From assembly GCA_000004985.1 (NCBI GenBank), contig GG738892.1: 64,000 nucleotides of DNA. One strand, 5' to 3'. Under the pieces are notes generated by a model, which saw only the letters and a list, made by a program, of their open reading frames with translations, searched no databases and was not told the origin of the DNA. Below are positions 5,990 to 42,440 of the stretch, one piece after another (position 1 is the stretch's first letter; every line of letters begins with the position of its first letter). The DNA is from Naegleria gruberi. Lineage: Eukaryota. The translations under genes were made by a program, and so were the position numbers.

Positions 5990-8900
5990 ATGTCCAATCA
6001 AACCAAGATGGATCTTTCCATCGCTGAGAGAAGAGCCTACGAATTTCTTCTCCGTTCTGAAGAAGCCAAACGTTGGATTGAAGAAATGATTCAGGAAAAA
6101 TTCGGTCAAGGCTCATCCATTGCCTACTTTGGTGAAATGATGAGAGATGGTGTGGCCCTTGCAAAGCTCGCCAAAATTTTCGCGCCAACCCACGTAAAAA
6201 AAATCAACAAGCCTAGTCAGAATGCGATCAAGTTGGAATTTTCCTTGGTTGATAATATTACTCAATTTTTGAATGCTTGTAAATCAACTGGTTTTAGAGA
6301 GATTTATCTTTTTGGTATGTTTTGTTTTTTTGAAGTGATTTTTATTCATATTTGTATTGTTTACTTGTTGTGTGTATTGATAATTTTTGTGATGATGACT
6401 ACTTGTTATGATTCATATGAATGATGGTTGTGTGATATGATGATGATTGATGATAATATAATACTACAATATAGAGGTTACCGATTTGTGGGAATTGAAG
6501 AATGTTTACAAAGTGGTGCATTGTCTCCATTCACTTTCTGTTTACTTATACACAAATGGTTTGTCAATCAAGATGGAAAGACTCAAGTCACTCAATATTT
6601 CTAGGGAAGATTTGGAACGTACAAAGAAAATGCTTGATGATTTGGAAAATTCTGGTATCAAATTTGATGATTCCATGATTGAAGGTGATGAAGGTGAAAG
6701 TAGCGAAGATTGTGACACTGATGTTAGATCAGACAAAATTAGAGAATACGTCACTAGTTTGGCCGATCCAGATCATTGTAAAGTAGATGGAGATAAGTTA
6801 AATTCAGCCATTTGTGGTGTGGAATCAAAATTCACAATCACAGCTTTTGATTCAGATGGTAATTTATTAAAGGGTTGCCAAGACAAATTTGAAGTTCAAT
6901 TGCAATCAGGATCAACAACATTCAATGCAAACGTCAAAAATAATAGAGATGGTACTTTTGAAGTGAGCTACACTCCTCAAGTTGCTGGTGACTATGTCAT
7001 GACCATTTCTCTCTTTGATGATGAATTGGGTGATGTTGTAGGTAACATTACAAATAAGAATGCATCAGATGGTGCTTGGAAAGTCAAGATTACAGCAAAC
7101 CCTGTTTCTGATCTATCAAAATGTGTACTCAAACAACAAAGAGATAATGCCAAGAGAGTATATAGAGCTGGTCAAGTTATTGATGATCTCATCTTGGAAA
7201 GTAGAGACTCATGCGGAAATATTGGTCTTGGAGGTGAAAAATTCGCTGCCAAGCTCATTTCCACTGTTGACAAGTCTGTTGTTTTCAATTCTAATGTTTT
7301 GGACAATAAGAATGGTCTCTATCAATTCATCTTCCAAATTGAAAGATCTGGTTCTTATGAATTGGAAGTTACTCGTGGTGATGAATACCTCTCCTCAACT
7401 CGTATTCCAGTCTCAATTCATGATTCTGGTAAGACTGATCCAAACAATTGTCTCTTCATTGGATTGGAAAGCAATTTGCTTCACTTGCTTGAAGATAATG
7501 GCAGCGAGTCCAACAAGGTCTTATCTTTGAGAAAGAAGGAAAATATTGTTAAATTGGAAAGAAAGGCAGGCGATGTCATTAGATTCTTGGTTCAAGCTCG
7601 TGACCAATATGGTAACAATCGTGAAGTTGATGGAACTAATGAATCCACTCTTCCACAACTCGTCTCTGAACAATTGACTGTTATTGCTTGTTTGGAAAGC
7701 TCTGATTCACCAACTATTGAAAATATTGACTCTGTTTTGATGACTCCAAGAACTGCCATGGTTGCCAAGAAACTTGGTGAATCAGGTACTCAATCCGATG
7801 GTGTTGCTGTTGATTCTACAATTGTCAAGATTCCACACATGAAGAACGACTCTGAATTGAGTGTATTGTTGGGTCTTGAACAATATGCCCAAAAGTTCAA
7901 TGGTTCTCAAGAAATGGAAAAGAAACTCTTTGAAACCATGTCCAAGTTTGTTTCTGAAAATGGTCATCACGGTTTGTACCTTGTTGAAACTAAATTGGTC
8001 GAAAGTGGAGACTATTCTTTGCAATGTAACTTGTTACAAGGAGATTGTACTTCCACATCAACTGCCGAAACTGACTCTGAATCCAAATCAAAGCCAACTC
8101 TCTACGCTGTTGGTCCAGCTCACACTGTTCACATTACTGATAATGGTCTCACTGATGCTAGTCAATGTGCAATTGTTCAAAGTTTCTCCAAGGGTGAAAG
8201 TGTTTCCAATACTGTTGTTGTTCCAAACAGCTCACTCAAGTTGGATCTCCAGAAGGATGATTATGAAAATCCAGACAATTTTTCCGATACTTTCAAAAAG
8301 TTCCATGCTGGTCGTGAAATGCACATTATTGTTCAAGCTCGTGACAAGTTTGGAAATGCTCGTAACATTGTAGAAAGTGATGAATTCTTATTGAAACTCA
8401 CTCCAAAACAAAAATCAGAACAATCTACTGAAGTTATTCCAGTGTCTGCCTCCTCACAAAAATTCGTTCAAGGAAAGGGTCTCTTTGAAATTGTCTACAC
8501 TGCCAAGATTGCTCAATCATACTATATGGAATTGGCATATGTTGACAAGTCTAAACTTGCTCCAGAAGTCACTGAACAAGAAAAGGCAGCTGCTGCTCAA
8601 TTGATCAAATCATTCCCACAAGAAATTACTGTCACTGATGCTGCAATTACTGATCCACACAATCTTTTATTCTCTGGTACTGGTATTACTAATGCTGTTC
8701 AAGGAAAGGAAAGTTTCTTTGTTTTGAGAATGAGAGATGAATTTGGTAACTTGAGACACCAAGGAGGAGATGATGTTAAGGCTACTCTCATTTCTGATGC
8801 TCGTAAGCTCGAATCTGCTGCCGAAGTTATTGACAATAAGGATGGTTCATACACTGTCAAGTATGTTGCTAAGGCCTCCGGTAAGAATCGTTTCGAAATT

Positions 8901-11321
8901 GTTATCAATGGTCAACTTGTCAAGAATAATGACATTTTGGATGCTGGTGTTTTCGTTTCACCACCAAATATTGAAGATGCAAGCAATGTTGAAACTATTC
9001 TTGATCACGATTTACTCTCTGCCCTCATGAATGCTTTCCGTGTTGAACAAAAGACTGATAACTTGGTTGAACAAATCCAAGCTCTCAGACAAGAATTGGT
9101 TAAACAACTTCGTGAAAACACCAAGATTAGTACTGATGTCAGAGATAAGGAAAGAAAGATTGCTCTCCTTGCTGAAAACAAGTATCGTGCTGAAGAAATC
9201 ATGAATCAAGGAAAGAGTGGTATTATTGGTTACTTCCAACGTCGTAAGACTATGCAATTCGGTGGACCTCTTGGAATTACCTCTGCTGCTGATGCCATGA
9301 TTAAGGAAAATATCAGTCTCTATGGTAACTTGTTCTACTTGCTTCAAACTAATCCAAAGTATCTTGCCAAGTGTATTTTCCTCGTTCCTGCATCAGATGT
9401 TGATCAATTCCTCAATACTGTCACTTTGACCTTGTACGGTTATGCTTTCAATCCTCGTGAAGAATATTTGATTTTGAACTTGTTCAATGAAACTCTCCAA
9501 CTCGAAGTTAAGAGTTCCACATTGGAAAGTTTCTTGTCTGGTAACCCAATTCTCATCAAATTGTTGATTACTTATTGTCACGAAAGAATTTCAGGAAAGA
9601 CCTTCTTGCAAAAGGTTTTGTACGACAAGATTTTGGATCCTATCCTCGAAGAAAAGGATCTCAACTTGGATCTTAACCCAATCAGTCTTCTCCGTGATAT
9701 TGTCTCTCAAAAGGAAGTTGAAACTGGTATCAAGAGCAATATTGACTTTAAGGAAATGACCTATGAAAAGGCTATGGAAGCTGATGAAAATGTTCGTAAT
9801 GCCATCAATTCTAGAAAGAACAGCTTGATCAAGATTTGTGAACAAATTCTCAATTGTATCTATGATAACATTCCTGAATTGCCATATGGTTTACGTTTCG
9901 TTTGTCGTCAATTGAGAACTTTGCTCATGCAAAAGTATCCAAATCACGATGATGAAAAGAAGATTAACCAAGTCATTTCATACGTTCTCTTCTTCCGTTA
10001 TTTGAACGCTCCACTTTGTACTCCTGATGGTTACAATTTGACAAAGAAGAAGATTTCTCCACTCATGAGAAACAATCTTGCCCTCATTTCAAAGGTCTTG
10101 TTGAGAATTTCTACCTTCAGAGAATTTGAAGCCGTGGATACTCACATGTTAATGATGAACGAATGGATTCGTGACAATATTCCATTGTTTAGCCAAAAGT
10201 TCTTGACTCCAAGTTTGGAAATCGTTGAACCAGAAGAATATCTCGGTGTCAATCAATATGCTGAACTTACTCAAAAGAAGAATCCAAGCATTACCATTAC
10301 TATTAATGAAATTGCCCTTACTCACTCTCTCCTTGTCAAGTTCAGCGGAAGAATCATCCCAACTGGTGAAGCTGCCGATCCACTTTCTGACCTCCTCACT
10401 CGTTTCAAGGATAAGATTCCAGAACAAGTTGAAACTGCCAAGAATGAAGAAATTACATTGTCTCTTGTCCCATTCAGTGTCAATGGAAAGGCTGAAGCCA
10501 CTGATGACTGGCTCACACTTTCACCAGAACAATTGTACGAAGTTACAAAGGAAAATGTTAGAACTATTCTTCGTTACATTACTCCACTTCAATTGGGAGA
10601 AACCGTTGAGGATACCTTGTCAAAGTCTGACTCTTATGCTGACGAAGTATTGAAGAATACTGAAAATATTGACAATGAAGTTGCTGGTTTGACAATCAAG
10701 AGAAAGGTCGAAGAAATTCGTAAGGCCCTTCCAAAATTGGATGAAGCTCAAATCATTACCAAGGAAAATCACTACCGTAAATTGTTGATCGATATCACTA
10801 AGGAAATTCAAAATCGTGAAGAACTCCAAAAGAAGCAACAAAAGGAAGTGGAAAGATTGAAGGAAAGTTTGAACAGTTTGAGATCATATCACTCATTCTT
10901 GAAGGACAAGGATGTCAGCTTGGATGAATACGTTCAACAAACTCTCAGAAACTATTTCAAGAAGCAAGAAAAGAAGAAGCAAGAATCTTCATCCAAGAGC
11001 AACAAGGTAAAGAGCTACAAGTTCAGCTATAAGGATTTGTCTGAAAAGTACAAGATTATCCACGACATTCAAGAAGGTTCATTTGGTACTCTCCAAAAGA
11101 AGGTTATCAAGTTTACAATTTCAATGAACGAAGGAGAACCAGGTGTCTTCTCAGTTTGTCCAACACTTGCTGGTAATGTCATTACTACTCTCCAACTCAG
11201 ATTGGAAGATTTGCTCGATAAGCGTGAAAAGGGTCAAGAACATCTCAAGATTGAAGGTGTTGTGCTCAATGTCAACATGACCATTCACTTGCTCAATAAG
11301 AAATTCTTATCAAAGAATTAA
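5990..11321 (+). CDS. IQGAP-family Ras GTPase-activating-like protein. It has an N-terminal calponin-homology domain, multiple filamin-type Ig repeats, a RasGAP-related domain and a RasGAP C-terminus. join(5990..6306,6476..11321).
   Basis: Exon 1 encodes a CH domain (FGEMMRDGVALAKLAKIFAP...). The intron runs GTATGT (6307) to ATATAG (6475). Exon 2 continues the CH domain (DLWELKNVYKVVHCLHSLSVYLY). The GAP-related domain carries the IQGAP-type motif FFRYLNAPLCTPDGYNL (compare YYRYMNPAIVAPD). Repeated beta-rich ~95-aa units are typical of filamin repeats. The C-terminus is coiled-coil and K/E-rich. Confidence 0.8.
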
Positions 11322-16129: not shown

Positions 16130-16278
16130 ATTAACAATGTCTCCCATTCATCATTCCTTACTGTTTCATCAAAATCCCTTCTTAACAATATCTTTAGATT
16201 TTTCAGAAATGAGACATTGAATGTTGATGATTTACTTCCTCCGATATTTTCAAACGTTTTTTTTGATTTTTTAAAAAA

Positions 16279-18228
16279 AATGAAAAGAAACTTTCCCGCC
16301 AATTCTCTCGTAGTTTTTATATTGTTGGTGGCTCTTGCTTCATCATCATTCCAACAACAAGAAACCTCTTCGGTAACAGTCTATAGTAAGAATAATTATA
16401 TTCTCAATTCGGAGGACTATTTGAAAGGAGCTGCTGTTGCTAGACTTGTCGATTCTGTTCAATTGAATGGCTGGTCTCAACTCAATATTTCAACCAATGC
16501 TAATTTATTTAATGATGAAGAACAAATGTATGCTGCTGGTATGGCTGAAGGATTAGTTTCCTCCTATCAAACCTGGCAACTTCTTCAAAATCAAATTTAT
16601 GATTGGAATTTCACGGAAAGTACTGGAAGTGTGAAGAGAACTCCATCATCAAATTATGTTTATCCAAAGGGAATTATTAATTTCCTTACACAAAATAATG
16701 CTTGGATGAGAAAGGAAGCTATTCAAAGAAAGGATCATTGCAAGTTTTGGTATCATGTCAATTTGATGATGACTCAATTTGATGGTCTTGTGGATGGTTT
16801 TTTGATTGGACAACAACGTGATTCTCGTATTCCTGCAAATAAGTATTTGGATTGGTTTGATTTGTTGGTTTTGCAAGGTATGTTTTTTAGTATTATTGTT
16901 AATGTTTAATAATTATTTCAATGCATTTCGCATGATAATTTTGTTATTGGATTCGGAATATTACATTGGAATATTGATGATTTTAAATTGAAATTACATG
17001 AAAATGGTTGAAATATATGGAATAGCTGCTGGTGATATGTACACACTTGTGGATGCTTTTGGAAGCTCATTGATGAAGTCTTCTCTCAAGACTCGTGCTG
17101 AAGCTTTTGCATCTGGTATTCCTTTGGAAGTTTTCCAATCTAATGCCTTCACTAGAAAGTATAAAGAAGAGCCACCATACACTGAATGTAGTGCTCTCAT
17201 TAAGGTTACACCAGATTGTAAAAACATCTTTGTAGGTCACACAACCTGGAGAAGATATAACATTATTAACAAGTTCTTCAAGACTCTCACAATGCCACTC
17301 AAGTTTGTTGCTGCCAAGACTGTCAGTATGAGTTCTTCTGCCAGTTTCTTCTCCTCTAAGGAAGATTATTTGGCTATGGACTCTGGTTTGGTTGCTTTGG
17401 AAACCTCTCTCAGTACCTACAATACTTCATTGTATAAATTGCTCAAGCCAGAATCATTACTTTCATGGGTTAGAAGTGTTGTTGCCAGTAGATTGGCTTA
17501 TACTTCAAAGGAATGGATTGATACCTTTGCTAAATTCTCCAGTGGTACCTAGTAAGTTTTCTCAATTCATTCACAAAAATATTTAAATGAATAGCAACAA
17601 TCAATGGATGAGTTTGGATATGAAGAAATTCAAGCCAGGTACTTGTCAATTGGAAAAGGATACCTTATGGATTATTGAAGAACTTCCAGGAGGTGCCAAT
17701 CAAAATGCTGACGTTTCATCAATTGTAAATTCCAATCAAGGTTATTGGCCAAGTTACAATATTCCATACTTCCCAGAAATTTACAACATGCTTGGTTATG
17801 CTGAAGCAAAGAAAAAGTTCGGAAATGAAATGGATTATAAATTGTGTCCAAGAGCTAAGATTTTCGCTAGAGAACAATCCAAGATTATCAATGATTGGAA
17901 ATCATTTGGAAGAGTTTTGCAATTCAATGAATGGCAAATTGATGAATTCAGTGAAGGAGATCCAGCTAAATCAATTGCTGCTCGTTACGATTTGAGACCT
18001 ACCAATGGTCAACTCAAACCAGCTGCATTTGGTGGTGCTGATACTAAATTGACCAGTTACAGACACGTCATGAATAGTGCTACTGGTAAACCTGTTACTT
18101 TCGGTATGGCTGGTCCAACTCACCAAGAACAAGCTCCATTCACATGGAATGATAATCGTTGGAATTCAATTCCACATTTGGGTCAACCAGACACTTACGA
18201 TTTTGACTGGGTTCAATTCAACAATTAA
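16279..18228 (+). CDS. Phospholipase B-like (PLBD / laminin-A family) secreted protein. join(16279..16877,17031..17551,17595..18228).
   Basis: Signal peptide MKRNFPANSLVVFILLVALASSS. Introns are GTATGT (16878) to AATAG (17030), and GTAAGT (17552) to AATAG (17594). Splicing restores the conserved PLB-like motif SGTYNNQWMSLD across intron 2. Other family-typical blocks are present (LVSSYQTWQLL, WNSIPHLGQPDTYDFDWVQFNN). Confidence 0.7.
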
Positions 18229-18326: not shown

Positions 18327-19334
18327 TTACAGCACAGTACAATTCCAAGAATTATTTTCAGTTTTCTGTGGTGATGGTTCTTGAATTAGTGTCCAATCTT
18401 TCAATTGTTGGAAATAGGTAAATTGCAATTGAACGAACCAAAATGGAGTAAACACATTCTTCATATCCTTTGAATTAGCCTGTACGAAGATTGATTGCCG
18501 GAATCCAAATGCCTTTTTCACAGCCTCCTTTGGGTTGACCATCTCAGTAACTTGAACATTTGAGTACAAGCCAAGAATAATGCCCAGATGTGGTTGTTTT
18601 AGAACCTCTTTAACTGCCTCAAACCATTTATCCAAATCATCAAGTGTTTCCTTTCGATTCATTGCAAAACAGATAAGAAAATTCAACCATGAAAGCCTTC
18701 CCAATTGCTTTACAACTCCAGTCGAAAGGTATCTTTCCTGTCGAGCAGTATCCCATATTTGATGTTTAAACGCTTCCTCACCTCTAAGAGGAGCAAACGC
18801 CTTGACAATAAAATCAACCATTGAGTGAGAATAATTGTCAAAGTGTCCATTGTTCATTGTCTTTGAAAAGGTTTTCTTTCCAACAAAAGCATCACCTACA
18901 AGCATGTACTTGATGGTGTTGTTGTTGGAATTTATGAGCTTGGGTTTCTCATAAGAAGGACGAAATCTAGATCGATAAAAATCCAATAAATTAAATTGAC
19001 TTTCTAATACGTGCTCAACGTTTTTTGAATCTTTTTGTTCTGATGGATTAATATTACCCAATCTAAATGCCAATTGTAATAAATACATTCGAATGAAATA
19101 CTTTGAATTTCCAATCAACGAAATTTTGTCCGATTCATCTTCAATATTTCCATTGGAAGAAGAAATTGAAATTTTACATCCCAACAAATTTTCATCACAC
19201 CTTAAAATTTCATCCACATAAACCCAACATTTTCCCACCACTTGATAAATTGCTTGGTTAGTTCCCACTAGTGAAGCAAGCACATCAATAGGATGCAAAA
19301 ATTGAATAACTGTGGTCCAAACATCTTGATTCAT
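18327..19334 (-). CDS. F-box-like N-terminus fused to a divergent Ras/Rab-like small GTPase domain. An upstream ATG at 19403 is an alternative start.
   Basis: N-terminus MNQDVWTTVIQFLHPIDVLASLVGTNQAIYQVVGKCW is F-box-like. The C-terminal half has G1 KYMLVGDAFVGKKT and G3 WDTARQERY (canonical DTAGQE with G to R), and NKxD is degenerate. The 23 residues before MNQDVW are AT-rich, leader-like translation. Confidence 0.5.
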   Translation of the reverse strand: MNQDVWTTVIQFLHPIDVLASLVGTNQAIYQVVGKCWVYVDEILRCDENLLGCKISISSSNGNIEDESDKISLIGNSKYFIRMYLLQLAFRLGNINPSEQKDSKNVEHVLESQFNLLDFYRSRFRPSYEKPKLINSNNNTIKYMLVGDAFVGKKTFSKTMNNGHFDNYSHSMVDFIVKAFAPLRGEEAFKHQIWDTARQERYLSTGVVKQLGRLSWLNFLICFAMNRKETLDDLDKWFEAVKEVLKQPHLGIILGLYSNVQVTEMVNPKEAVKKAFGFRQSIFVQANSKDMKNVFTPFWFVQLQFTYFQQLKDWTLIQEPSPQKTENNSWNCTVL

Positions 19335-19898
19335 TTTTTTTTGATTGTAAAAATAAAAATTTACAGTAATAAGCAACAAGATTTTTATTTTGTCATGAAT
19401 CATCTTGTATTAAGATGTTGATGTGATCTGGGAGAAAATAAATTGTGCAATGTGCTCATTGGGACAAATTTTAAAAGTTGTAACTAGTTAAGGAACATTG
19501 AGGGGAATGGATTAAAAACTTGTGAAGCAAGTTTTGACACTTTCTACCAACCAAGTGGGTGTTGTCCTTTAATATTAAGGACATAATTCAACTTGTCCTT
19601 TTTCTATCTAAAAAAATACAGTGGATACAATTTCTTTAGAATCATCATCCTCACCAACCCAATAAAACAAAACAACATTCCAAACTTTGGAAGTTGATCC
19701 TTCCCAAATTCAAAATGACAAAGAGAAATACTTCCCAGAACTATTTGTTGAAGATGAACAAGATGTAATCATACAAATTAGTCAAAAGTCAGATTGAAGA
19801 ATTGTCTATTTTTATGTAGAATTGGACTGCTATAACATTTATATTCCATATTTGACAATTTTCCATTAAAACAATTTTTTGTAAATTCAATCAAAAAA

Positions 19899-20381
19899 AT
19901 GCTTCGTTCCAAAATCACTTCCGTTTGCTCATCACGACAATTTATTAATTCCTTCGGCAAATCCTCATTATTTCCATCATTAAACACAAAATTACATAAT
20001 TTCCATTCCTTACAAAGTAACCGAAAATCAAACTCATCCGATATTGATGCAAAATCCATCATTAAATCTATTAAAGTCCCAGAAATGGGTAATGGTATTA
20101 GATCCGCAACCATTTCCCGATGGAAGAAACATCCAGGTGATGAATGTGATGGTTCTGATGTGTTGGCTGAATTGGAGATGAAGAATTCTGATATGAAATT
20201 ATTGCTCGAGTTGAGACCACCTGTTAAGGGACAAGTGAGGGAACATTTGAAGAATGTTGGAGATGAGGTGATGGTTGGAGAGAAGATTGCAACCATGGAA
20301 ACGTTGGATATTGATGAGGAAAGTAGATTGAGACATGTTGTGGAGGATGCTATCATTGATGTTCATGTTTTACCTAAATAG
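19899..20381 (+). CDS. Small mitochondrial-targeted protein consisting of a single lipoyl-attachment (biotin/lipoyl hybrid-barrel) domain.
   Basis: The N-terminal ~60 aa is S/R/K-rich and lacks acidic residues (MLRSKITSVCSSRQFINSFGKSSLF...), i.e. presequence-like. It is followed by IKVPEMGNGIRSATISRWKKHPGDECDGSDVLAELEMKNSDMKLLLEL..VGDEVMVGEKIA, which matches the lipoyl-domain consensus including the lipoyl-lysine position (ExxK). There is no catalytic or E3-binding domain after it. The stop is at 20379..20381 with no donor site. Confidence 0.5.
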   Translation: MLRSKITSVCSSRQFINSFGKSSLFPSLNTKLHNFHSLQSNRKSNSSDIDAKSIIKSIKVPEMGNGIRSATISRWKKHPGDECDGSDVLAELEMKNSDMKLLLELRPPVKGQVREHLKNVGDEVMVGEKIATMETLDIDEESRLRHVVEDAIIDVHVLPK

Positions 20382-39857: not shown

Positions 39858-42440
39858 TTACCAATTATCACCACAAGAACATTTTCCGTTTTCAAAATGA
39901 TGAAAACGTGAAGCATCTCTTACAATAATTTTGCAGTTTCTGACTTTTGAGATATACTTTGTAGCATTATGGCAATCTCCACAAACTCTCAAATTGTTAG
40001 CAATTCTAATAGTGGAACCTTTTGGTTGGTGAATAAAAGCATAGGCCATGGCCAATTTTTCTGAATGGCGACACAATAAATTCTTTTTCTCGTCGTCTGT
40101 AAATGTTCCGTGTTTAGTAACCCACCTTAAATCAGGCTCATAGCCAGCATCAATCATTTCCTGAGTTAGTTTCATTAACTCTTCTTCTATTTGTTTAATT
40201 TCAGGGTGGTTTTTGTCGTTACTAACAAAACTATATGTTTTTCCATTGATTTCAATAGTTGTTACTCCCGGAATCTTCTTTGCATTTTCTGATTTCATTT
40301 CTTTTTTGAGAAGTTCTACCTCAAGGTCCTCACCAAAGTACGAATAAATATTCGCTAGCAGGATATAATTGGACGAATCAGTTTTGTCTATTTCCTTTAA
40401 AATAGCAAAAGCCTTCCTTGCTCTCTCCAAATCATTATACTTTCTACATCCTCCTAAATAAGTACTCCACAATATTAATTCTTTGCTGTCACCAATTATT
40501 TTTTCTGCTTCTTCAAATAATCCAGAACGAACTAAACCATCCACCAAACAAGCTGTGTGCTTTATGGTTGGTTCGATATGATACTTGCTTGGCAGTTCTC
40601 TATAGAGATTAATGGATTTCTCAGGCATCATGTTGTGGCTGTATGCAGAAAGCATGTGAAGAAGAGTTTCTTCATTCGGTTCGAAGCCTTGCTCTATCAT
40701 CTTGTCGAATATTACTTCTGCCTGTTTGGCTCTCCCATTTTGAGCACATGTTGCGAGTACTACGTTCCATGTAATGATTGAAATTGGGTATTCTCTTCGC
40801 AATAAATCTACAAATAACTCAAAGGTTTTCTCTATTTCTCCCATTTTACCATAAAAGTTTAGGATAGTATTGTGTAGTTCAATTTCCTGAAAATGATATT
40901 TTTCAGCAATTTGATGTATTTCAATACCTTGCTTCAAAGATATACCATCAGAATATAAAGAAAGCATTGATATCAGTGAAATATAATCAAAATTTTTCAA
41001 TCTTAACATTTCTTCAAAAGTTTCTTTTGCCCTATCATAGATTTTGAAAACAGAGTAGAATTTAAGTATAGAATTACGCAATTCCAAACCACATTCAAAA
41101 AGTGGTGGCAGTAGTGCAATAATTTCTTCTCCTTCTTTTTTCAGCAATTTGTTTGTACACTCATTTAGCATTACAATAAATGAAACTTCGGAAGTCTGTT
41201 TAGTTGACATCATGTTGTAAAAGAGAGAGAAGGCTTCTGATATTCTCTCATCTTTGAAGAGGATTTTTAGTATCGTATTACACATTGGAGTATCGGGATT
41301 CTTGAAAGAGTAGAAGGTCTCAATAGATCTCTCAACCTCCCCTAAGTTTGCGTAAAATGAAATTACAGAGTTCATAACAATAGGATCTTTGCATTGGTTT
41401 TGTTCTATTAAACCACATATTTCCTTTCCTCTCTCAAATAGGTTGTTAGAAATACAAGCATTCAGCATAATAACGAATGTGCTATTTGATGGCTCGGCAA
41501 GTCTACGAAAATTTTCAAAAGCAAGATCAATTTTACCGCTTGAAAGAAGAGCTTGTAAGTAACAATTCCAAGTTATTATATTCTTTTGAGGAGAATTAGT
41601 AAACAACTCAATAGCTGTTTCATATTGCCCACATGTGGAATAAAAACTAATTAAACAAGTAATTAAAGTGATATCGTTAAGCAAATGTGGAAACAGTTCA
41701 ACAATAATTCGGTGAATAGATTTTCCTCCTTCTAAATATTTGATTTTAGAGCAAGATTTGATGAGCGTTGTAAACAAAATAGCATCAGGAGAAACACTCA
41801 TTTCCAACAAGATGTTCTTCACATCTTGCAAGCGATAATTCTCTATCAATTTTTCGGTTACTTTTGTTATATCTATTATTGTTGGTGCTTCCATTTGGTT
41901 GAATAGTCTAATTACCATTTCTAGATTTCCAGAAGTACAATACGAATTGAGCAAACAAGACTTGTTCTTTTCGCTCAATGGCACCAAATTGTTGTCCAGT
42001 GTTTCGTACCAAAACTGTGCCTTTTTTTTGAATTTGGGACTTGTGGTCATAGCGTTCAAGATCATGTTCCACAATGTCGGAGAAATTCTTTTAAATTCGT
42101 TTGGTGCAAGTGTGGAGAGGATTTGATTAACTTCTTCTAAATATTCATCTTGAATCCATTTCTCTTGATTAGTTCGCTTGCTAGCAAAATACATGGACGT
42201 TAGAGTATTAACTGAACGTTTTGAAGAAACCCTCTCAAATATTCTTTTACAATCATAAAAGTTAATTTCCTTCTTGTTCAACAAGAAGACAGCGTCAAAA
42301 TCATTAGGGTTTTTAAAATATTCTTGTAGTGCTGCGGTGGGGTTTTTTGGGTCAAATAAGTCTTTCACCTTTCCTAACTTTTTTAATGAGGTTGCAAAGT
42401 GGCGAAGTGTGAACATTTTTTTGATGAAGAACCCCACCAT
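39858..42440 (-). CDS. Pentatricopeptide-repeat protein with a C-terminal E/DYW-type cytidine-deaminase domain (organellar C-to-U RNA-editing-factor type).
   Basis: Single 860-aa ORF. About 15 degenerate 35-aa PPR/TPR-like helical repeats are followed by HSEKLAMAYAFI...IRIANNLRVCGDCHNATKYISKVRNCKIIVRDASRFHHFENGKCSCGDNW. That is the DYW-domain HxE...CxxCH zinc-binding deaminase signature, with terminal DNW in place of DYW. The N-terminus is basic and presequence-like. Confidence 0.8.
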   Translation of the reverse strand: MVGFFIKKMFTLRHFATSLKKLGKVKDLFDPKNPTAALQEYFKNPNDFDAVFLLNKKEINFYDCKRIFERVSSKRSVNTLTSMYFASKRTNQEKWIQDEYLEEVNQILSTLAPNEFKRISPTLWNMILNAMTTSPKFKKKAQFWYETLDNNLVPLSEKNKSCLLNSYCTSGNLEMVIRLFNQMEAPTIIDITKVTEKLIENYRLQDVKNILLEMSVSPDAILFTTLIKSCSKIKYLEGGKSIHRIIVELFPHLLNDITLITCLISFYSTCGQYETAIELFTNSPQKNIITWNCYLQALLSSGKIDLAFENFRRLAEPSNSTFVIMLNACISNNLFERGKEICGLIEQNQCKDPIVMNSVISFYANLGEVERSIETFYSFKNPDTPMCNTILKILFKDERISEAFSLFYNMMSTKQTSEVSFIVMLNECTNKLLKKEGEEIIALLPPLFECGLELRNSILKFYSVFKIYDRAKETFEEMLRLKNFDYISLISMLSLYSDGISLKQGIEIHQIAEKYHFQEIELHNTILNFYGKMGEIEKTFELFVDLLRREYPISIITWNVVLATCAQNGRAKQAEVIFDKMIEQGFEPNEETLLHMLSAYSHNMMPEKSINLYRELPSKYHIEPTIKHTACLVDGLVRSGLFEEAEKIIGDSKELILWSTYLGGCRKYNDLERARKAFAILKEIDKTDSSNYILLANIYSYFGEDLEVELLKKEMKSENAKKIPGVTTIEINGKTYSFVSNDKNHPEIKQIEEELMKLTQEMIDAGYEPDLRWVTKHGTFTDDEKKNLLCRHSEKLAMAYAFIHQPKGSTIRIANNLRVCGDCHNATKYISKVRNCKIIVRDASRFHHFENGKCSCGDNW

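Follow-up and report, generated by a model that had tools for sequence, protein, structure and literature searches.

The window examined here, a 64,000-nucleotide (nt) stretch of Naegleria gruberi contig GG738892.1, contains on its minus strand the gene for XP_002673286.1, a Rab-like protein in which an N-terminal segment, most likely derived from an F-box, is followed by a helical linker, a degenerate Rab-derived domain that is probably a pseudoGTPase, and a C-terminal CaaX box. Neither the gene, which carries a public annotation, nor its family and architecture, described in 2021, is new. We add two points: sequence support that the N-terminal extension of this CaaX-bearing subgroup is an F-box truncated at its N terminus and without the Leu-Pro (LP) motif, and a subgroup-wide loss of the NKxD and SAK motifs, accompanied by paralogue-specific decay of the P-loop and switch II, which suggests that its members are likely pseudoGTPases. 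The identity and anatomy of XP_002673286.1 as described below are put forward with high confidence.

Gene structure and translation start

The minus-strand open reading frame (ORF) 18327..19403 runs without interruption for 358 codons in a window of 32.6% GC. At a stop frequency of ~0.075 per codon, the chance of an open frame of this length is ~1e-11 (hand estimate), and the length is far above chance. The 335-amino-acid (aa) product that begins at the second ATG is identical to N. gruberi NEG-M EFC40542.1 (XP_002673286.1; UniProt D2VRY2) by exact-sequence look-up. It is annotated as “rab family small GTPase” from a single-exon public model. Two further ORFs of the window match N. gruberi proteins from the same 342-kb contig, which identifies the window as N. 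gruberi NEG-M.

Sequence comparisons place the translation start at the second ATG (19334) and not at 19403, for three reasons. First, all full-length homologues align from the second Met. Second, the public 335-aa protein matches exactly, while look-up of the 358-aa version found no exact match in the protein collection. Third, differences from a related environmental contig fall between the two ATGs. This contig (L001; European Nucleotide Archive [ENA] ERZ929261, run ERR1078381) comes from a metagenome assembly and is 98% identical to the window; between the two ATGs it differs by 7-, 2- and 1-nt indels plus substitutions, the indels clustering just 5′ of ATG 19334, and the first 135 nt 3′ of the second ATG show a single conservative change (V5I). 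The sequence-only reading had taken 18327 to 19403 as the gene; that frame is open throughout, but its first 23 codons (19335..19403) are almost certainly untranslated. An intron across the site of a 2-nt indel was considered and rejected, as GTGTGA is unlike the GTAAGT/GTATGT donors of the neighbouring gene and the public single-exon model, identical to the ORF, speaks against it.

The features of the locus are as follows.

18327..19334, minus strand: complete single-exon coding sequence, 335 aa plus TAA stop (exact-sequence look-up; homologues align from residue 1)
19335..19403, minus strand: upstream in-frame ATG and 23 codons, 5′ leader or promoter (AT-rich; indels relative to L001; absent from homologues and from the public model)
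19200..19334, minus strand: F-box-like segment, aa 1-45, MNQDVWTTVIQFLHPIDVLASLVGTNQAIYQVV... (F-box profile positions ~6-40; LP and conserved Trp missing)
19198..19199, minus strand: site of a 2-nt (GT) deletion in L001, near position 1418 of that contig (pairwise alignment and translation; GTGT context)
18963..19115, minus strand: conserved helical linker, aa 74-124, GNSKYFIRMYLLQLAFRLGN … QFNLLDFYRSRF (family alignment; subgroup-specific)
18441..18911, minus strand: Ras/Rab-fold G-like domain, aa 142-298 (Pfam Ras, Roc, PDB Rab11, Foldseek)
18873..18896, minus strand: G1 P-loop, GDAFVGKK for canonical GxxxxGK[S/T] (Ras positions 10-17, with A12, F13 and K17)
18735..18752, minus strand: G3/switch II, DTARQE for canonical DTAGQE (Ras G60R, Q61 kept)
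18558..18569, minus strand: G4 site, canonical NKxD lost, reading LYSN (YSNV by another aligner)
18468..18476, minus strand: G5 site, canonical SAK lost, reading NSK
18330..18341, minus strand: CaaX box CTVL, preceded by a conserved Trp (family alignment)

A Naegleria-restricted family with a degenerate Rab-like domain

When 1.84 billion representative proteins were scanned exhaustively with HMMER, full-length relatives were confined to two species, N. gruberi and Naegleria lovaniensis. N. gruberi has six (D2W196, D2W0S8, D2VSG5, D2VSI1, D2VQX3 and D2VYT9) and, besides these, a partial model. The full-length relatives align from residue 1 to the C terminus, and the combination of an F-box-like head with a degenerate Rab-like domain is kept in at least seven full-length paralogues and orthologues. 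The sequence-only reading had proposed looking for the same fusion in related amoebae, and the N. lovaniensis protein is a full-length member that carries it. Separate homologue searches, made with the protein, the full-length alignment and the N-terminal alignment, gave 1, 4 and 2 proteins, respectively, and missed paralogues. A scan of Joint Genome Institute (JGI) metagenome contigs found no further relatives, and tblastn of the 64-kb window found no further paralogues. The remaining HMMER matches were Rabs, either ordinary or tandem, together with a single RING-Rab and a metagenomic protein, P0073, compared below. Apart from P0073, the long or N-terminally extended Rabs among the matches were tandem-Ras proteins, RING-Ras proteins or proteins whose extension has no Pfam match, and were set aside as unrelated to the family. 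By these alignments, XP_002673286.1 belongs to a Naegleria-restricted paralogue family composed of an F-box-like head, a two-helix linker, a Rab-derived G-like domain and a CaaX box.

This agrees with the published record. Herman et al. (2021, BMC Biol 19:142, PMC8296547) list XP_002673286.1 in their Table S8 as an unnamed “Rab.” The entry bears neither a pseudogene flag nor a label for an additional domain, and it gives no orthologue beyond Heterolobosea. The paralogues listed beside it (XP_002670760, XP_002681067, XP_002672868, XP_002672932, XP_002669889, XP_002670133 and XP_002673455) are those that our searches recovered independently. The same study describes Naegleria-specific divergent Rab-like subgroups whose N-terminal extension is identifiable as an F-box “in at least some” (Additional file 4), and reports a conserved CaaX motif in one of them. 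With its extension, Rab-like domain, CaaX box, restriction to Naegleria and place in Table S8, XP_002673286.1 fits that CaaX-bearing subgroup. The sequence-only reading had called the architecture uncommon, which is true across eukaryotes but not within N. gruberi: according to Herman et al., no other extra domain is as frequent as the F-box on the Ras-superfamily GTPases of Naegleria, a finding that they describe as “pointing to GTPase-dependent ubiquitination” (PMC8296547).

The C-terminal half is clearly a Ras/Rab-fold domain by profile and fold comparison, as the sequence-only reading had proposed. Pfam Ras (PF00071) scores 56.9 bits (cutoff 21.6; E 2.2e-15 to 2.5e-15) over aa 142-298, which become aa 165-321 when counted from the first ATG of the 358-codon ORF, and Pfam Roc also matches (6e-9). 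The best PDB sequence matches are Rab11 (9.6e-11), RabA1a, Ypt6, Rab12 and Rab43. The G domain of a low-confidence AlphaFold2 (AF2) model, used as a Foldseek query, returned Ras/Rab chains at a template modelling (TM) score of ~0.75 normalised to the target. Among the RabF motifs attributed to Pereira-Leal and Seabra, which reportedly read IGVDF, KLQIW, RFrsiT, YYRGA and LVYDIT, the first three are partly kept by eye on the PDB alignment (SMVDF, KHQIW and RYLST) and the last two are not (QLGRLS and ICFAMN).

All nucleotide-binding motifs of XP_002673286.1 are non-canonical, as read from alignments to Rab11 and H-Ras (BLASTP for the latter). Two changes described in the sequence-only reading, the Gly-to-Arg substitution in G3 (Ras G60) and the loss of NKxD, are borne out by these alignments. 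Its lysine at the G12-equivalent position was an error of registration: BLASTP pairs GDAFVGKK with the GAGGVGKS of H-Ras, so that position 12 is Ala and position 13 Phe, and the extra Lys falls at position 17, in place of the Mg-coordinating P-loop Ser/Thr. In switch I, Thr35 is replaced by Ser (T35S). The loss of SAK, which reads NSK here, had gone unmentioned, as had the CaaX box. These changes are shared unevenly among paralogues. G4 and G5 are missing in every family member, the G4 region reading G[LF][HY][PS]xx family-wide. Some paralogues retain G1 and G3 (GDTGIGKT and DTAGQE in P0002); in others the two motifs are broken, in ways that differ from one paralogue to another, and they are more degenerate in XP_002673286.1 than in P0002. 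The P-loop GKK is shared with paralogue P0005, and the other paralogues have GK[ST]. Since G4 and G5 are lost throughout the family and the decay of G1 and G3 is varied, nucleotide binding appears to have been released from selection from early in the history of the subgroup. Because Ser/Thr17 is replaced by Lys and G60 by Arg, NKxD and SAK are lost and Q61 is kept, poor or no binding of nucleotide and Mg is predicted. The G-like domain is probably a pseudoGTPase with weak or no guanine-nucleotide binding, and on these motifs we consider loss of the GTP/GDP switch function rather likely.

The C terminus has a single Cys, in the CaaX box CTVL, and the di-cysteine CC/CxC motif of Rabs is not present. 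A CaaX box is conserved family-wide, the paralogues ending in CSIY, CSLL, CIIQ, CSLM or CSLQ. This is a prenylation signal of the Ras/Rho style rather than the Rab type and predicts membrane anchoring; the terminal Leu of CTVL predicts geranylgeranylation. XP_002673286.1 is thus probably a prenylated, membrane-bound protein, as judged from its C-terminal motif.

A variable acidic or Ser-rich spacer separates the F-box-like head from the linker, whose family motif is GNxKYFIRLYLLKLAxKLGN … ELKLLNFYR, with N76, L85, L92, L116, F119 and Y120 invariant. Both AF2 models place helices at about residues 74-93 and 103-124 (predicted local distance difference test score [pLDDT] 50-66). By eye, linker aa 78-124 (KYFIRMYLLQLAFRLGN … QFNLLDFYRSRF) resembles KFIRYLLRKQVYEFACKLAQ … ELSILKGCFKRF of a sister subgroup that has a canonical F-box. 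A possible relationship between KYFIR..LA.KLGN and KFIRYLLRKQVYEFACKLAQ was dropped, as its hhalign probability was 2.5% and not significant.

The F-box-like head and its possible role

The sequence-only reading had likened the N-terminal ~40 aa to an F-box. The likeness is upheld at the level of the family but not by any Pfam match in the protein's own sequence: the F-box resemblance of XP_002673286.1 holds only via its paralogues. No family other than the F-box profile PF00646 turns up repeatedly on the N termini; it matches five of the eight members as well as the family consensus, with one match above the cutoff of 20.5 bits. That match is N. lovaniensis P0012 (26.2 bits, E 6.7e-6), which also passes the F-box-like profile PF12937 and whose UniRef name is “F-box domain-containing protein.” The matches of N. 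gruberi P0004 (18.8 bits), P0002 (15.7 bits), P0005 (15.6 bits) and P0003 (14.7 bits) and of the consensus (18.5 bits) lie below the cutoff. All span profile positions ~6-40, corresponding to residues ~3-39, and leave profile positions 1-5 uncovered. When nine family N termini were compared by hhalign with twelve reference F-boxes, all twelve confirmed as F-boxes by Pfam, the probability was 69.9% (E 4.1e-5, 29 columns), and the alignment pairs QDxWxEIIQFLEPIDVLaSL..INR with the F-box segment of Skp2. The N-terminal segment is therefore most likely F-box derived, as far as profile comparison can place it.

In Skp1-Cul1-F-box (SCF) ubiquitin ligases the F-box protein is the substrate-receptor subunit, although it can itself be auto-ubiquitinated. 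The sequence-only reading, in which the GTPase was presented to an SCF ligase, inverts this usual logic; since an F-box protein acts as substrate receptor, the Rab-like domain is more plausibly a binding or regulatory module than cargo. We propose that the Rab-like domain, no longer a switch, may serve as a constitutive protein-interaction surface and that prenylation of the CaaX box would hold the protein at a membrane. Provided that Skp1 binding by the F-box-like head has been retained, the anchored protein would act as an SCF substrate receptor, its Rab-like domain recruiting Rab-binding partners for ubiquitination. This combination of pseudoGTPase, prenylation and conditional SCF receptor at the membrane is our best overall explanation and has, in our judgement, about an even chance of being correct; the SCF-receptor step considered by itself is tentative. 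A head that does bind Skp1 would make these proteins a rare example of substrate recognition by a Rab-like domain in an SCF ligase at a membrane, which would bear on how amoebae regulate or defend endomembrane traffic.

Alternatively, the F-box may be vestigial: the head would not bind Skp1 and would act as a cap or regulatory arm on the Rab-like domain, the protein being a prenylated scaffold with no link to ubiquitination. We regard this as somewhat unlikely. Several observations weigh against the SCF-receptor proposal, and the first of these, down to the search of PDB sequences, also favour a vestigial F-box. In XP_002673286.1 itself neither PF00646 nor PF12937 matches even at E≤10, two paralogues likewise have no F-box match and most of the others fall below the Pfam cutoff; profile searches of the translated ORF, the check suggested in the sequence-only reading, gave a Ras match but no F-box match. 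The LP motif is absent, the protein starting MNQD with its initiator Met at the aligned position of LP, and LP-to-AA mutations commonly abolish Skp1 binding. The conserved F-box Trp is absent from the segment as well. The hhalign probability is only 70% over 29 columns, and an hmmsearch of PDB sequences with a profile of the N-terminal 134 aa of the family retrieved no F-box protein, giving only spurious RelA/SpoT matches (E 0.18-1.8). Structure prediction, also suggested as a check, supports the G domain by its Foldseek matches to Ras/Rab but is unusable at the N terminus, where pLDDT is 30-46 over residues 1-75 in both models, too low for a fold search; a run on the N-terminal 134 aa alone gave a pLDDT of 49. 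In Table S8 of Herman et al. this subgroup does not carry the “F-box” label, and disrupted copies in these clades led those authors to birth-and-death evolution (PMC8296547). Finally, the 2-nt deletion in L001 would put two stop codons directly after the F-box-like segment (…EILR, then two stops) and leave the downstream frame intact. Against a vestigial F-box, conservation within the N-terminal extension is highest in the F-box-like segment, with D4, W6, F12, L13, P15, D17 and S21 invariant in the family, so that some binding function appears to be selected, and the two sister Naegleria Rab-like subgroups have canonical F-boxes.

It is improbable that XP_002673286.1 is instead a recently redundant paralogue drifting towards a pseudogene, its odd motifs being products of decay. 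Such a history would fit the disrupted copies reported in these clades (PMC8296547), the frameshift after codon 45 in L001 and the greater degeneracy of G1 and G3 relative to P0002. Yet NEG-M has all 335 codons in an unbroken frame, neither the CaaX box nor the family-specific motifs have been lost, and Table S8 has no putative-pseudogene flag for the gene. Moreover, four of the six substitutions relative to L001 are synonymous (four synonymous over 206 sites and two nonsynonymous over 799 sites), giving a ratio of nonsynonymous to synonymous rates (dN/dS) of ~0.13 (Fisher p = 0.018), a comparison of small counts. The 2-nt deletion, which accounts for the 253-aa product of the metagenome gene caller, lies in a GTGT context of a metagenome assembly and may be an error; it could be a real strain-level disruption, fitting birth-and-death evolution, or an assembly error.

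The sequence-only reading had inferred a GTP-locked or non-hydrolysing pseudo-GTPase presented to an SCF ligase; on such a model the F-box would deliver the GTPase itself to the ligase for turnover. In its favour, G60 is replaced, the switch regions are altered and the authors of TbFRP, the FYVE-F-box-Ras-like GTPase of Euglenozoa, tie its F-box to rapid turnover (Exp Parasitol 2013, PMC3593210). The model is nevertheless very improbable, because the lock was deduced from the mis-registered Lys, which lies at the Mg-coordinating position 17 and not at 12, the guanine-holding NKxD and SAK are absent, the catalytic Q61, which locked mutants usually have altered, is still present, the motif changes together predict poor nucleotide binding, and F-box proteins act as receptors even if auto-ubiquitination is possible.

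A more speculative extension of the proposed membrane-anchored receptor, to which we give the slimmest chance, is that the Naegleria F-box-like/Rab-like families are membrane-anchored “Rab decoys” for bacterial effectors that target Rabs. The Rab look-alike, independent of nucleotide, would capture effectors of intracellular bacteria such as Legionella or chlamydiae and pass them to the SCF ligase for ubiquitination. The idea would fit families that have expanded in one lineage, turn over by birth and death, are disrupted at the level of strains and have relaxed nucleotide motifs. If true, it would describe a device of innate immunity in amoebae comparable to the integrated decoys in nucleotide-binding leucine-rich-repeat (NLR) receptors of plants.

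Several other features of the window deserve mention. Between the XP_002673286.1 gene and the neighbouring, divergently transcribed lipoyl-domain gene (19899-20381, plus strand), ~400 nt (19424-19831) have no counterpart in L001, which has ~75 unrelated bases in their place; no other copy of the segment occurs in the window. A phospholipase-B-like gene (16217-18228, plus strand) consists of three ORF blocks separated by two short introns, one with a GTATGT donor near 16879 and one of ~43 nt (GTAAGT…AG) near 17552-17594, which provide the local intron consensus. In a 1611-aa ORF (6486-11321, plus strand), RasGAP and RasGAP_C domains lie C-terminal to filamin/Ig-like repeats, an arrangement like that of IQGAP. 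An 860-aa pentatricopeptide repeat (PPR) protein with E, E+ and DYW deaminase domains (39858-42440, minus strand; DYW 5.3e-46), identical to N. gruberi EFC40548.1, has the architecture of a plant-type RNA-editing factor in a heterolobosean. Lastly, 62605-63138 consists of ~90 near-perfect tandem copies of GGGTTT (Tandem Repeats Finder [TRF] score 1005, 97% matches), a telomere-like hexamer that is nevertheless internal, as the sequence runs on to 64000. This array accounts for the ORFs without stops that occupy several frames at 62541-63231.

Comparison with known systems

RhoBTB proteins, in which an atypical Rho domain is fused to BTB domains and which are Cul3 adaptors, resemble XP_002673286.1 in joining a small-GTPase-like domain of atypical nucleotide behaviour to a cullin adaptor. 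They differ in using BTB and Cul3 rather than F-box, Skp1 and Cul1, in being of the Rho type, in their domain order and in mostly having no CaaX box. Herman et al. mention RhoBTB among the multidomain members of the Ras superfamily. The mammalian F-box protein FBXL2, which is geranylgeranylated at a CaaX box, shares a membrane anchor through a C-terminal CaaX ending in Leu, but its F-box is canonical and its substrates are bound by leucine-rich repeats, not by a Rab-like domain.

Outside the Naegleria family, P0073, a protein of ~290 aa from an uncultured eukaryote (JGI metagenome, 1038-nt contig), has the same order of F-box and then Ras (F-box-like 1.4e-13, Ras 4.3e-45). Unlike the Naegleria proteins, it has a canonical LP-containing F-box and near-canonical GNAGVGKT, DTFGQE and TKLD motifs, and the family-specific linker is lacking. 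Legionella encodes Rab-like effectors that carry an F-box or a U-box (Gomez-Valero et al., bioRxiv 10.1101/350777). By description these, too, join a Rab-like domain to an adaptor domain for a ubiquitin ligase, in amoeba-associated organisms; they are bacterial and secreted, and their Rab structural features are reported to be conserved.

TbFRP has an F-box upstream of a Rab-related GTPase domain and belongs to Discoba, the lineage that also holds Naegleria, and its authors propose that it links a small GTPase to the SCF ligase or to turnover (PMC3593210). It is a ~64-kDa protein with an N-terminal FYVE domain that binds PI3P and targets it to membranes, compared with the CaaX box predicted to do so here. 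No FYVE match was found by Pfam in XP_002673286.1 or any family member, and the family is therefore not an FRP; the TbFRP authors, too, found no orthologue in N. gruberi (PMC3593210).

The two sister subgroups within Naegleria (PMC8296547) have canonical, LP-containing F-boxes and longer N-terminal regions, neither of which is found in the subgroup of XP_002673286.1. Herman et al. did not discuss the motif-level pseudoGTPase state of XP_002673286.1 described here. Their CaaX-bearing Naegleria subgroup and this gene have in common the N-terminal extension, the CaaX box, the restriction to Naegleria and birth-and-death dynamics (PMC8296547).

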